Of a stretch of DNA of 64,000 nucleotides, positions 32,793 through 54,198 are shown piece by piece. Source of the stretch: a phage; sequence record OR896157.1. The stretch is one strand, 5' to 3'. Below the pieces are notes generated by a model. The model was not told the DNA's origin, ran no database searches, and was given only the letters and a program-made list of their open reading frames with translations. Numbering within the stretch: position 1 is the stretch's first letter; the number at the start of each line of letters is the position of its first letter. The position numbers and the translations under genes were made by a program.

Positions 32793-32955
32793 ATCTACCT
32801 CTTGAGTTAAAGTACCTCAATGGTAGTAAAATCCTGCTTTAAAATATTTCATGGTGATACTTTCCCTTCAATTAAAATCTTTAAGAATCCAAGTAAAGCT
32901 GCTATGATAAACCCAGCAGCTGGAAAAGCGAATAACCAAAATAATACATCAATAA

Positions 32956-33087
32956 TCATCCTAATGTTACCTTGCATTTGCATTTTGGACATTCAACTTC
33001 TTTTACGCGAAGACGCTTTGTCTTCGAGCGCGGCGCTGTATCATGGTCATAAACATGAAGACATCGATAGCAAATGACTAATTTCAT
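32956..33087 (-). CDS. hypothetical small zinc-ribbon protein (43 aa, not in track)
   Basis: manual translation MKLVICYRCLHVYDHDTAPRSKTKRLRVKEVECPKCKCKVTLG. Confidence 0.3.
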   Translation of the reverse strand: MKLVICYRCLHVYDHDTAPRSKTKRLRVKEVECPKCKCKVTLG

Positions 33088-33114
33088 CAGTAGATAGCCT
33101 CGAAGATTTTTACA

Positions 33115-33714
33115 CTATTCATAAATACCAGTCATTTCACACCAATGTTTTCGACAGAGTGAGACGTATTTGTCTTCACCACCTAATTCAATAGTATCAC
33201 CTTCTACGATAGCATTTCCTTCTTGGTCAACACGAGCAACCATTGTTGCTTTACGACCACAATGGCAAACACCCTTCAGTTCGCAGAGTTTATCTGCAGT
33301 TGCCAGAAGAGCGGCAGAGCCCTTAAATAGGTTACCACGGAAATCTGTACGAAGTCCATAGGCCATCACTGGAGTATTATAGAGGTCAACAATTTGACAT
33401 AATTGAAGAACGTGAGACTGGGTCAAGAATTGAGCTTCGTCAACAAACACACAGTGAATATCTTTTTGAGTCTGCGCCCATTTGAAAAACTCAAGAATGT
33501 CCATGTCTTCAGTGATGGTATTTGCTTCAGCATGTAGACCAACACGAGATACAACTTCATTTGCTGAATCTCGCGTGTCAATAGCTGGCTTAAGAATGAG
33601 CGTTCCCATTCCACGCTCTTTATAGTTATGAGCTGCTGTAAGCAGAGATGCTGATTTACCAGCATTCATTGAAGCATAGTTAAAATAAAGCTGAGCCATT
33701 ATTCGCCGTCCCAA
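33115..33714 (-). CDS. tk: thymidine kinase
   Basis: 199-aa ORF; AAMNAGKSASLL P-loop, zinc ribbon CHCG...C; strong match to remembered T4 Tk. Confidence 0.93.
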   Translation of the reverse strand: MGRRIMAQLYFNYASMNAGKSASLLTAAHNYKERGMGTLILKPAIDTRDSANEVVSRVGLHAEANTITEDMDILEFFKWAQTQKDIHCVFVDEAQFLTQSHVLQLCQIVDLYNTPVMAYGLRTDFRGNLFKGSAALLATADKLCELKGVCHCGRKATMVARVDQEGNAIVEGDTIELGGEDKYVSLCRKHWCEMTGIYE

Positions 33715-34154
33715 TCAACTACAATAATATCAACATTTGGAGTGAACATATTAATTAATGCTTCAATCTTTTCCCAATCGCCACCAGCAATGCCGGCGCC
33801 AATGCGAGGAATATAAACATCCATTTTGAACAAAGAACCAGATAAGAATTTGTCCATTTTCTGAAAAGCATTAATTAATGCGCCATAATCAAGATTAGGA
33901 CCTGGTTCGTATTGAGTGTAAAGATTAAAGCAAGCACCACCATTTAATGCTAACGCTAAGCTAAAAGTTCCAAGCTTTTTATGGTCAGCATAATCTGTAG
34001 CTGCTTTGTCAGTTGACAAAATAACCGGAAATTTTGAAGCAAGTTGTCCTGCTACGCCAGCACCCATAGTATGGAAACAGTTACAACCATGAGCAATAAC
34101 TTTGCCTTCAGAATATAGCTTAACAATATCGCCTTTAATGTAATTTACAATCAT
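33699..34154 (-). CDS. macro-domain protein (ADP-ribose binding/processing)
   Basis: 151-aa ORF; macro signatures HGCNCFHTMGAGVAGQL and IGAGIAGGDWEKIEALI. Confidence 0.6.
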   Translation of the reverse strand: MIVNYIKGDIVKLYSEGKVIAHGCNCFHTMGAGVAGQLASKFPVILSTDKAATDYADHKKLGTFSLALALNGGACFNLYTQYEPGPNLDYGALINAFQKMDKFLSGSLFKMDVYIPRIGAGIAGGDWEKIEALINMFTPNVDIIVVDWDGE

Positions 34155-34570
34155 CTTTTCCTCAACTCAGGTATGCTTTTAAATTGATAAGTAGCGTAGT
34201 TTTCAAATTCATCGTAAACTCGTGCATAAATTTCTTCGCCACATGTTAACTTTTTGAAAGACTTCAAATCTCTTTCAGAAAAATCTATCGATACTCCGTT
34301 GATGATTCCGGAGGATTTGGCTCCGCAACCTCGAAAATGAATTGAACCACCCGGAATAATAGCTTGGTCTTCTTTGTTAGAGTAATTGTAAAATGATACA
34401 CCAAAAGCTTTCTTTTTAGGATAGTAAGAAACTTCAATATTCTTTTTAAACGAACCAGTTGTTTCAACTAGCTTACCATCAATAGCGTAGATATTATCAG
34501 GATAGCCTGGGAGTTTTTCCCAGGCATTTACCGATAATGGTAGAGCTAGCAGAAATGCTGCTATTTTCAC
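34151..34570 (-). CDS. hypothetical secreted protein (signal peptide)
   Basis: 139-aa ORF, N-terminal MKIAAFLLALPLSVNA. Confidence 0.5.
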   Translation of the reverse strand: MKIAAFLLALPLSVNAWEKLPGYPDNIYAIDGKLVETTGSFKKNIEVSYYPKKKAFGVSFYNYSNKEDQAIIPGGSIHFRGCGAKSSGIINGVSIDFSERDLKSFKKLTCGEEIYARVYDEFENYATYQFKSIPELRKR

Positions 34571-34893
34571 TTAGATAATCCCGCTATATACACCCTCAAT
34601 AACGTATCACGATATTCTTCGCATACGTTTACATCAGGTGCATTATCACACAACGACTCAAGGTCTTTAGCCTTACGAGCCACCAAGGTAGACCATTTAA
34701 AGCGGCTACCAGAATCAGTTTGTCCTTCAGCATAAGTTTTGTCAAAGTCAAATGACAAAATGTTCAAACACTCTGTATTAGTCTTAGTGCAGAATTGCTT
34801 TGCTAATACTAAAGAATCATCTTGTTCAGTAGCAAAATCAACTTTACACCCAGATAGAGCAAAAACTATTAGAAGTACAAACAACTTTTTCAT
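34567..34893 (-). CDS. hypothetical lipoprotein (lipobox LSGC)
   Basis: 108-aa ORF, signal peptide + Cys; several further Cys. Confidence 0.5.
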   Translation of the reverse strand: MKKLFVLLIVFALSGCKVDFATEQDDSLVLAKQFCTKTNTECLNILSFDFDKTYAEGQTDSGSRFKWSTLVARKAKDLESLCDNAPDVNVCEEYRDTLLRVYIAGLSK

Positions 34894-35441
34894 TATTCCA
34901 CCGTATAATGAAGTATTTTACGAGATTTCAAGTAATTCGCCTTTGCTAATACTTCAGAGGCGTACTTGTTGCCGGCTTTCCACTTGTTTCCTGCGTTGTA
35001 TGATGCTATGGCTTTTCTCATATCACCGTTATGACGGTCTAACCAATAACTTAACTCAATATACGCCCAAGCGGCGGAGTGCTTCCGGCTCTTTGCCATG
35101 CGGATGATTTCAGCGTCTGTCATTGACCATCCGGCTTGTTTAACTCTTTCCCTAAGTGTAGGAAGATAATTTTGAAATATCCCGTAAGCTTGATGCCCAT
35201 GTTTACCAGTTGTACGTAAGCCTGCAGAACTTTCCTGCCAGACTAGTGCAGCCATAATGTAACCAAGTCCATCATTGTCATAGCGCTTACTATGGTCTTT
35301 ATACTTCCCATTCTTCTGAAATTGTTCACCAAACGAATATGCGTATTGCAAATTGTCGAGTTGGACATTACTGAAGGTGTGTTCGGACGCGAATCCTAGA
35401 GACGAAACTAGGAGTAACGCCGCGCATAGAGCTTTTTTCAT
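34893..35441 (-). CDS. secreted lytic transglycosylase-like protein (SLT domain)
   Basis: 182-aa ORF; signal peptide; SLT-type motif LVWQESS...AYGIFQ. Confidence 0.55.
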   Translation of the reverse strand: MKKALCAALLLVSSLGFASEHTFSNVQLDNLQYAYSFGEQFQKNGKYKDHSKRYDNDGLGYIMAALVWQESSAGLRTTGKHGHQAYGIFQNYLPTLRERVKQAGWSMTDAEIIRMAKSRKHSAAWAYIELSYWLDRHNGDMRKAIASYNAGNKWKAGNKYASEVLAKANYLKSRKILHYTVE

Positions 35442-35459
35442 GTTTACCTCAAATTAAAG

Positions 35460-35930
35460 CTATAACTTGATAATCTTTGTGCTGATTTTACCTTTCAAGC
35501 GTTTATCATTTACGAATGCCATGCGACATTGCATGGAGTGACCGCGGAACGGATGTTCTGGGTTTGGTAGAGAGACAGTCATTCCAAGCCATAGAGTACC
35601 ATCTGTGATTTCCAGACGTTGAGGTCTGTACTCTACTTCTGGGTCAATTTCCGATGGGTCAATTGGAAGCATCGGCATTTCTAAGAACTCGTGAATTTCT
35701 GTTACATGGTTGTGTACTTTGTGGAACAGAGCGAACACATACTCTTCATCAATTTCTCGCTGGATAGCACGGTCCAGGAGGTGATTAGAATATTTAATAA
35801 AGAAAGCTGGAATACCAGCAGATGCGCAAGCACTACGTATAGAATCGTTTACACTCTTGAATTCAGTCTCAAAGCGGCGACGTAGCTTGTTTCGGCGGAT
35901 GAATACTTCTGGGTTAGTTGTCATTTTCAA
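35460..35930 (-). CDS. regB: endoribonuclease RegB
   Basis: 156-aa ORF closely matching remembered T4 RegB (EVFIRRNKLRRxFExEF, HLLDRAIQREIDE, QCRMA). Confidence 0.92.
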   Translation of the reverse strand: MKMTTNPEVFIRRNKLRRRFETEFKSVNDSIRSACASAGIPAFFIKYSNHLLDRAIQREIDEEYVFALFHKVHNHVTEIHEFLEMPMLPIDPSEIDPEVEYRPQRLEITDGTLWLGMTVSLPNPEHPFRGHSMQCRMAFVNDKRLKGKISTKIIKL

Positions 35931-35950
35931 TCTCCTTTGTTGATAGGGCT

Positions 35951-35980
35951 ATAGTATCATAGCCCTTGGAGAAAGTAAAT
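35951..35980 (-). promoter_or_regulatory. T4-type early promoter (ATTTAC-N18-TACTAT) within palindrome GGGCTATAGTATCATAGCCC
   Basis: minus-strand motifs upstream of regB; 27-nt block identical to 53138-53164. Confidence 0.55.
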
Positions 35981-35982
35981 AG

Positions 35983-36255
35983 TCAGTAGTTATGGTCATC
36001 GTAGAACACTTGAAGCAGAACATTGCTACGCAGCTTCTTGGTGTCCGCGATGCGTTGACGGAGCTTTGAGATTTTGTCCTGAACAGCATTGAAAGCATCA
36101 GAAGTCTTAGGGTCATGAAGACCCATAGACTCATCCACAAGCTGCTCCATCTTTTCTTCCATAGCATTGATAGCTTCGGAGAAAGACTCGGAGACTTTGT
36201 TGCGGATAGACATTAATACTTTTCTTCTGGTTGAAATACTGAACGGCATGCCCAC
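35983..36255 (-). CDS. hypothetical protein
   Basis: 90-aa ORF. Confidence 0.45.
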   Translation of the reverse strand: MGMPFSISTRRKVLMSIRNKVSESFSEAINAMEEKMEQLVDESMGLHDPKTSDAFNAVQDKISKLRQRIADTKKLRSNVLLQVFYDDHNY

Positions 36256-36494
36256 ATAGAAGCTTCTTTCAAACGATCAATTGCATTACGAATCTGAGTG
36301 ATTCTAGAATGAGCTAGATCGAATTCTTCGTCGCTTATAGTGTCAACATCCAAGTCCATGTAAACTTTGACATGCTCTTCTTCTAAGGCTTTGAAAATCA
36401 AGCCAAGACGTAATTCAGCATCTTTGATAGCGTTCACTTTACCAATTTTGTCATCAGTGTGTGGTTTATAGCCTTTGATATCTTCAATTGACAT
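36213..36494 (-). CDS. hypothetical protein
   Basis: 93-aa ORF. Confidence 0.45.
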   Translation of the reverse strand: MSIEDIKGYKPHTDDKIGKVNAIKDAELRLGLIFKALEEEHVKVYMDLDVDTISDEEFDLAHSRITQIRNAIDRLKEASMWACRSVFQPEEKY

Positions 36495-38987: not shown

Positions 38988-39467
38988 TTAGCATTCCCAA
39001 AGAGCGTCTTGAATGACCTTTGGATAAAGTTTCTGCATAACAGAGAAAAGACTTGGGCCCATTACTACATTCCACATACGCGGCTGAATCAAAGCAAACG
39101 CATCGATTTCCGGAAATTCGTTTCCATCTTCGTCCGTATGATATGCCGTGCAAATACAATCTCTGAATTGAGAGTGTTCCACTGGGAACGGATATTCAAA
39201 GATATGTATATCTTTATTGCTAGCATAATCATGTCGGCCTAGGTCCACTAGATGTCCTGGATTATAATCAACGAATCCACTTTCTTCTCTGCATTCACGA
39301 ACTGCAGCTTCAAGAGGAGATTCACCTGGCTCGATATGACCCTTTGGAATGTCCCAGCGAGATGGTCCACCACCTAGTCCAGAATTAGTTACTCGACCCA
39401 TGAACAGTTCTTTGTCTTTTGTAAAGAACAGAATACCAGCAGAGACTTCTTTAATTTTCTTACTCAA
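38988..39467 (-). CDS. nudE: Nudix hydrolase NudE
   Basis: 159-aa ORF; Nudix box GHIEPGESPLEAAVRECREESG; adjacent to e. Confidence 0.85.
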   Translation of the reverse strand: MSKKIKEVSAGILFFTKDKELFMGRVTNSGLGGGPSRWDIPKGHIEPGESPLEAAVRECREESGFVDYNPGHLVDLGRHDYASNKDIHIFEYPFPVEHSQFRDCICTAYHTDEDGNEFPEIDAFALIQPRMWNVVMGPSLFSVMQKLYPKVIQDALWEC

Positions 39468-47506: not shown

Positions 47507-47956
47507 CTATTTCTCTTGAAGCATTTTGCGTAAACGATAGAGCTGATTACAAAATTCCTTTTCAGTCAAAACTGTTTCAGAGATTTTGTTCTTGCCCATA
47601 CTGTGGGTTAATGTTGCGTTACGAGTAGCAATCAATGCTTTTTGGAATCCAGTGTTTTGAGCAAGTGCGTCATAAGCTCCAGTTAAAAGATTCTGGTATG
47701 CTTCAGATGCTCGATGAATAGGAACACCCTTCCAATAAAGTGTTTGAGTAGGCCACCAACGCTTCTTCTTACCTTTGAACTTTGCTGCCTTTCCAACCAA
47801 TGTGCAAACATGAGCTTGCATTTCAGGGTTAGAAAATTTGAGGGATTGTAAAAATCCCTCCATTGAAGCACATTCTACACCATCATAAACGAAAGCATGT
47901 GGTGCAAAGTTACTTAAAGCACAAGAAGGATATGAACTTCCAGAGCCAATGTCCAT
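47507..47956 (-). CDS. NADAR/YbiA-like protein (DUF1768), candidate ADP-ribose glycohydrolase
   Basis: 149-aa ORF; SNFAPHAFVYDGVECASMEGFLQSLKF resembles remembered E. coli YbiA core (SNFA..DG..SEHYFQAQKF); downstream W...ALxAT pattern also shared. Confidence 0.5.
   Translation of the reverse strand: MDIGSGSSYPSCALSNFAPHAFVYDGVECASMEGFLQSLKFSNPEMQAHVCTLVGKAAKFKGKKKRWWPTQTLYWKGVPIHRASEAYQNLLTGAYDALAQNTGFQKALIATRNATLTHSMGKNKISETVLTEKEFCNQLYRLRKMLQEK

Positions 47957-53187: not shown

Positions 53188-54198
<1,011 letters not shown>

Follow-up and report, generated by a model that had tools for sequence, protein, structure and literature searches.

A Tk.4-type (AdfM) macrodomain gene beside thymidine kinase in a PG7-like Enterobacter phage

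The window considered here is a stretch of 64,000 nucleotides of phage DNA (sequence record OR896157.1), and the coordinates of its relevant features are collected in Table 1. The genes around the macrodomain open reading frame (ORF) all lie on the minus strand, in the order regB (PF10715, E=1e-69), vs.1 (SLT domain), vs (PHROG 1256), ORF139, macrodomain gene and tk, an arrangement that corresponds to the early block of T4. The 3-kb stretch around the macrodomain ORF shares 98.6% identity with Enterobacter phage PG7 (Karamvirus, Tevenvirinae) and about 30 close relatives, and the label given to this ORF in the RefSeq entry of PG7 is "phosphatase; Tk.4 hypothetical protein".

Table 1. Features of the macrodomain locus and related genes; positions refer to the window, except in the last row, where they refer to bacterial loci.
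Feature	Position	Strand	Evidence or remark
Thymidine kinase gene (tk), directly downstream of the macrodomain gene	33115..33699	-	Pfam TK, E=1.7e-54; PG7 annotation
Macrodomain CDS, 151 aa, ATG start	33699..34154	-	ortholog of T4 Tk.4 (AdfM)
Loop 2, IGAGIAGG, residues 118-125, diphosphate-binding loop	33780..33803	-	sequence; I118, G119 and G121 invariant
Q81 codon, at the catalytic Lys position of DarG (K80) and TARG1 (K84)	33912..33914	-	alignments
Loop 1, GAGVAG, residues 31-36, glycine-rich ADP-ribose-binding loop	34047..34064	-	sequence; G33 and A35 do not vary across the family
N25 codon, aligned with active-site N22 of DarG and N23 of PhiKZ AdfM	34080..34082	-	hhalign against DarG-type macrodomains
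Shine-Dalgarno-like GAGGA, 4 nt 5' of the macrodomain ATG	34159..34163	-	sequence
ORF139, 139 aa, upstream neighbour of the macrodomain gene	34151..34570	-	PHROG 4957, no function given
vs (valyl-tRNA synthetase modifier), 108 aa	34567..34893	-	full PHROG 1256 profile matched
NudE-type NUDIX hydrolase, about 5 kb from the macrodomain gene	38988..39467	-	PHROG 1185, E=1e-68
gp30.3/AdfN homolog, NADAR fold, C-terminus intact	47507..47956	-	PF08010 (Phage_30_3), E=1.4e-59
T4 57B homolog	53493..53951	-	PHROG 755, E=1.6e-63
NADAR-macrodomain loci of Ruegeria	L033:3472-4011; L045:3535-3993; L057:3532-4020; L067:3522-3995		

The stop codon of ORF139 and the start codon of the macrodomain gene overlap in ATGA, through which the two genes are translationally coupled, and at position 33699 the macrodomain stop overlaps the ATG of tk in TAATG; overall, the macrodomain gene appears to be translationally coupled within a long minus-strand operon. 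A scan of positions 32800-36300 returned numbers of promoters (11, against 9.0±2.7 in shuffled sequence) and of terminators (5, against 2.2±1.4) near expectation, and neither a T4 MotA-box motif just 5' of the macrodomain gene nor a dedicated regulatory element was found. Over both strands of the whole window, the MotA-box-like sequence WWTGCTTYA occurs 35 times against the 10.7±3.4 expected from shuffles, an excess that fits T4-type middle promoters. As for ORF139, which lies between the macrodomain gene and vs, its N-terminus is hydrophobic and resembles a signal peptide (MKIAAFLLALPLSVNA...), and neither Pfam nor PADLOC returned a match for it; the gene is not present in T4 at the equivalent position, and it was found in 247 phage records, the carriers being T4-like phages, for the most part ones that infect Klebsiella and Enterobacter. 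In RefSeq PG7, vs is a CDS of only 198 nt, and its database start codon is probably misplaced.

An earlier note on this DNA had described a macrodomain ORF with both glycine-rich loops next to a thymidine kinase gene, and this description stands: in the translated ORF the two loops are spanned by HGCNCFHTMGAGVAGQ (residues 22-37) and by PRIGAGIAGGDW (residues 116-127), and the neighbour is identified as tk by Pfam. In the profile check put forward with it, Pfam PF01661 (Macro) on its own scores 18.7 bits (E=0.0017), below its gathering cut-off of 22, but all the stronger tests, among them PHROG 335 (E=7e-64) and profile searches of the PDB, place the protein among the macrodomains; a precomputed PF01661 match is present in about half of the close homologs. 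Searched as a single sequence against the PDB with phmmer, the protein retrieves yeast Poa1p, Bt_1257, SCO6735, the DarG macrodomain of M. tuberculosis and human TARG1, and a profile made from 59 homologs retrieves Bt_1257 (E=1.6e-18), TARG1 (6.6e-16), Poa1p (7e-15), SCO6735 (3e-14) and DarG (1.5e-11). Together with an AlphaFold2 model of mean pLDDT 95.6 and pTM 0.90, and with a three-layer alpha/beta/alpha macro fold carrying two glycine-rich ADP-ribose-binding loops, these results identify the product of the ORF as a genuine macrodomain. In both sequence and structure it is nearer to the ALC1-like class (TARG1/DarG/SCO6735/Poa1p) than to the MacroD-, viral- or PARG-type macrodomains, and the PDB matches therefore assign it to the ALC1-like class and not to MacroD/YmdB, which makes the comparison with MacroD/YmdB proposed earlier unsuitable.

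Over its full length, the window macrodomain can be aligned with T4 Tk.4 (NP_049723), at 51% identity (E=1e-61), and it is the ortholog of that protein, in PHROG 335. Homologs were found by tblastn at 2,817 places in total in 2,810 phage records, with one place given per listed record, and several among the matches listed are annotated as tk.4, "phosphatase" or "macro domain protein". The macro/A1pp nature of these proteins was recognized as early as the mid-2000s, and in GenBank the relatives are annotated as Tk.4 or "phosphatase"; the RefSeq entry of T4 states for tk.4 that it "contains A1pp phosphatase motif", and an A1pp domain match in tk.4 orthologs was already reported in a 2006 comparison of T4-like genomes (PMC1524935). 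The gene of the window is of an already known kind, an ortholog of Tk.4/AdfM carried by a phage similar to PG7.

The function of tk.4 emerged from a T4 transposon library grown on a host expressing DarTG2, in which tk.4 was the single significantly depleted gene; a clean knockout rendered T4 sensitive to DarTG2, and the gene was named adfM, for anti-DarT factor macrodomain (10.1101/2025.11.20.689424). With this ortholog, the role proposed in the earlier note, that of a counter-measure to an ADP-ribosylation-based defence such as DarTG, has been demonstrated in T4 (10.1101/2025.11.20.689424). Removal of ADP-ribose from DNA by T4 AdfM was deduced by the authors of the preprint, in whose words it "seems likely" (10.1101/2025.11.20.689424).

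The second role envisaged in the note, regulation of the phage's own ADP-ribosyltransferases, found no support. A related explanation is that the protein reverses the ADP-ribosylation of proteins or RNA, acting either on marks of the phage Alt/ModA/ModB type or on those of RNA-modifying defence transferases, and of the alternatives weighed here we consider it the least probable. The Alt/Mod enzymes modify arginine, and reversal of arginine ADP-ribosylation is not known for TARG1-type macrodomains, which counts against this explanation. It draws on the fact that genes for Alt-type transferases occur in T4-like phages (T4 annotation) and that macrodomains of the TARG1 class act on Glu/Asp esters of proteins as well as on nucleic-acid ends (PMC9411070), but of the conditions covered by the T4 screen DarTG2 was the only one under which tk.4 was needed (10.1101/2025.11.20.689424). 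Moreover, T-even phages are still sensitive to the mRNA ADP-ribosyltransferase system CmdTAC (PMC11618068), so that Tk.4 does not neutralise it.

The residues of the active site separate the protein from DarG and TARG1. DarG sequences gathered from PDB alignments with PhiKZ gp104 as bait were made into a DarG-type alignment, against which the phage family was compared with hhalign (probability 98.5%, E=3.5e-15). In this comparison N25 falls on the active-site Asn of DarG, a residue whose role has been described for DarG N22 and PhiKZ AdfM N23 (PMC13309987), and Q81 falls on the invariant FPTK lysine. Profile and multiple alignments likewise set TARG1 K84 against Q81, and TARG1 D125 against A123 of the window protein. 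Both residues are constant among the relatives, N25 wherever the position is covered (119/119 of the closest 90% clusters and 138/138 of the 50% representatives) and Q81 throughout (120/120 of the closest 90%-identity clusters and 138/138 further 50%-identity representatives). The LYTQ motif is shared by T4 Tk.4, and Gln also occupies the Q81 position in Bt_1257. The spacing between Q81 and Y90 is 8 residues, as in TARG1, compared with about 14 in Bt_1257 and a range of 8 to 16 among relatives.

In SCO6735, a glutamine at this position is known to support catalysis. According to a structure-based alignment, Gln85 of SCO6735 is the equivalent of DarG K80 and TARG1 K84; the enzyme removes ADP-ribose from thymidines of DNA at a higher rate than either DarG or TARG1, the Q85A/E substitutions abolish its activity, and the catalytically dead protein still inhibits DarT, by binding (PMC9411070). 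The Gln-for-Lys active site offers a concrete point from which to approach the biochemistry of T4-type AdfM.

As SCO6735 inhibits DarT by binding, protection by the window AdfM need not be purely catalytic, and the same observation speaks for an alternative in which the protein, as an antitoxin mimic, would owe most of its protective effect to binding of the DarT2 toxin, which it would block, with hydrolysis dispensable. Inhibition of DarT by the dead SCO6735 Q85A exceeds that by DarG K80A or TARG1 K84A (PMC9411070), and ICP1 AdfB counters DarT through direct interaction (PMC11481870), yet the window protein, with its 151 residues, has no counterpart of the C-terminal DarT-binding domain of DarG. 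In addition, thousands of relatives, among them bacterial proteins that stand alone and lack a DarT neighbour, show no variation at the ADP-ribose-binding and catalytic positions. This speaks for selection acting on the enzymatic function, and we regard toxin blocking as the main activity to be very improbable.

A further alternative takes the historical "A1pp phosphatase" annotation at its word, and would make the protein a phosphatase or esterase of small molecules, similar to Poa1p, with ADP-ribose 1''-phosphate or O-acetyl-ADP-ribose as substrate; it would clear NAD+-derived metabolites or signals during infection and have no part in DNA repair. The protein resembles Poa1p in fold and sequence, but the phosphatase name of Tk.4 was taken from a domain match (PMC1524935), Bt_1257 and TARG1 rank above Poa1p in the profile search, the invariant Gln matches that of SCO6735, a DNA de-ADP-ribosylase (PMC9411070), and DarTG2 sensitivity is the sole phenotype known for an ortholog (10.1101/2025.11.20.689424). 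Such a metabolic role is in our view unlikely, and as a name for PHROG 335 "phosphatase" probably misleads; "anti-DarT factor macrodomain (AdfM, Tk.4-type)" would be a better one. The practical value of the finding lies in annotation; PHROG 335 is present in about 2,800 sequenced phages.

The reading that we prefer, with a probability of roughly 0.7, is that the window protein is made during infection from the tk-regB operon and hydrolyses ADP-ribose off the DarT2-modified thymidines of single-stranded phage DNA. By analogy with T4 AdfM and SCO6735, it would be a free-standing, antitoxin-like enzyme, and would meet DarTG2 in Enterobacter hosts; host DarT2 toxins place ADP-ribose on thymidines of single-stranded phage DNA and thereby block replication. 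An identity to T4 Tk.4 of only 51% and the different host genus weigh against this reading. The ADP-ribose would be held in the cleft between the GAGVAG and IGAGIAGG loops, and hydrolysis of the bond between ADP-ribose and base would restore replicable DNA. Catalysis is expected to proceed at a SCO6735-type site that includes N25 and Q81, both of them invariant, and to depend probably on an activated water instead of the Lys of DarG and TARG1.

The window phage carries a second gene of this kind. Its AdfN homolog shares 43% identity with T4 gp30.3 in an alignment that extends through the last, C-terminal, helix; the gp30.3 allele of RB69 is inactive because its C-terminal helix is truncated (PMC11825919). 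T4 gp30.3 is AdfN, a DNA ADP-ribosylglycohydrolase of the NADAR type, which is both required and sufficient to counter DarTG1 (PMC11825919), and for this reason the claim in the earlier note of two distinct ADP-ribose-processing folds in this phage holds; as the role of tk.4 against DarTG2 and that of gp30.3 against DarTG1 are both published, that reading was right, and already known for the orthologs. The AdfN homolog lies in a region of tRNA genes about 14 kb from tk, away from the DNA ligase gene 30 that the gene adjoins in T4, and the CDS given in RefSeq PG7 measures 411 nt against 450 nt for the window ORF. AdfN would remove the guanine-linked ADP-ribose left by DarT1, so that with AdfM and AdfN together the phage would undo the two types of damage that DarT toxins are known to cause. 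Since T4 57B is the anti-CBASS nuclease Acb1 (HIDEN-SEQ preprint), the window holds at least three counter-defence genes, namely those for AdfM, AdfN and Acb1. The presence of AdfM and of an intact AdfN predicts resistance to both types of DarTG, and this prediction bears on the choice of therapeutic phages against Enterobacter. The window also encodes a NudE-type hydrolase, and T4 NudE has been reported to hydrolyse ADP-ribose, the product that AdfM and AdfN would release.

The family is very large. Its profile finds 17,290 clusters (50% identity) at E<=1e-3, and 1,052 at E<=1e-30, among 1.84 billion representatives, and when bacterial species were scanned with one genome each, 353 relatives at about 40% identity emerged. 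The bacterial relatives come from diverse phyla and are mostly stand-alone ORFs of about 150 aa. Beside 80 bacterial homologs, no partner gene was common to more than 8 loci, and Pfam scans of 10 tightly linked neighbours of bacterial relatives revealed no DarT domain. On this evidence, T4-type AdfM looks like one of the many members of a widespread, stand-alone Gln-type family and not like a captured DarG. A broader proposal, that this huge and mostly stand-alone Gln-type family is Lys-independent and erases ADP-ribose from nucleic acids more widely than the marks of DarT2 alone, forming with NADAR a general two-enzyme eraser kit, is tentative, and we consider it possible but doubtful.

Several gene neighbourhoods and fusions in the family merit a mention. 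In four Ruegeria chromosomes (4/80 loci), the gene for the Tk.4-like macrodomain is directly preceded or overlapped by a NADAR gene, a pair that mirrors AdfN and AdfM of the phage; PF08719 identifies the NADAR protein in L033, L045 and L057 (E about 1e-37), and in L067 it was recognized by sequence motif only. Some relatives are longer, with 243-247 aa (L005:2468-3211, on a metagenome contig, and P0075, P0100, P0111, P0115 and P0116), and the one examined among them, P0075, is a fusion of a Tk.4-like macrodomain with a NUDIX domain; about 2.4 kb downstream on its contig are NMNAT-like (CTP_transf_like) and NAPRTase-family genes. The phage homologs H64, H67 and H72 adjoin genes for NAMPT or PRPP synthetase. 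This suggests that part of the family is linked to phage NAD+ reconstitution pathways, and the NAD+-salvage neighbours of some phage homologs hint at other roles for that part.

Among the known systems with which the window protein can be compared, the DarG antitoxin macrodomain of DarTG2 (PDB 5M3E, 5M3I, 7OMU) has its catalytic Lys where the window protein has Gln. An identity as DarG was rejected: the score on the NCBIfam DarG equivalog NF048014 is 20.1 bits against a cut-off of 250, the Lys of FPTK is missing, the PADLOC match to DarG covers only positions 2-138 of the 329 in the profile, so that the C-terminal domain is missing, and no darT lies beside the gene, whose neighbours are tk and ORF139. 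SCO6735 of Streptomyces coelicolor and Bt_1257 of Bacteroides (PDB 5E3B, 2FG1/2AFC), which are ALC1-like proteins of the Gln type, share the replacement of the catalytic Lys, but their identity to the window protein is only 28-29%, and their mobile loop is about five residues longer than that of DarG and TARG1, an extension that the window protein does not have. With neither the Lys of DarG nor the longer loop of SCO6735 and Bt_1257, the activity of neither can be simply transferred to the window protein.

Two other phage factors against DarT were considered. ICP1 AdfB was set aside as an analogue, as it acts by direct interaction with DarT and no enzymatic removal of ADP-ribose has been reported for it (PMC11481870). 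The macrodomains of chimalliviruses, such as PhiKZ gp104, were independently named AdfM, and removal of the DarT2 mark by them has been demonstrated biochemically (PMC13309987). PhiKZ AdfM has in common with the T4 type the name and the nature of a stand-alone phage macrodomain that counters DarTG2, but it is DarG-like and of the Lys type (N23/K78), and is imported into the phage nucleus (PMC13309987). It matches DarG with E=9e-25 and the window protein only marginally (BLASTP E=0.004), and membership in the same family was rejected; the two proteins called AdfM therefore represent separate recruitments of the macro fold.

T4 AdfN is a functional partner, which shares with AdfM the role of an orphan, antitoxin-like de-ADP-ribosylating protein of phages, but its fold is unrelated, its substrate is guanine-linked ADP-ribose, and the system against which it protects is DarTG1 (PMC11825919). 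The nearest counterpart is T4 Tk.4 itself, with which the window protein, from a phage whose host genus is Enterobacter, unlike that of T4, shares its length class, the motifs LYTQ, HGCNC and PRIGAGI, and its position in the tk-vs-regB early block. The T4 order is tk, tk.1, tk.2, tk.3, tk.4, vs, and that of the window is tk, macrodomain gene, ORF139, vs; hence, the macrodomain gene overlaps tk where T4 has tk.1-tk.3 in between, and is separated from vs by ORF139, a gene that T4 does not have there.
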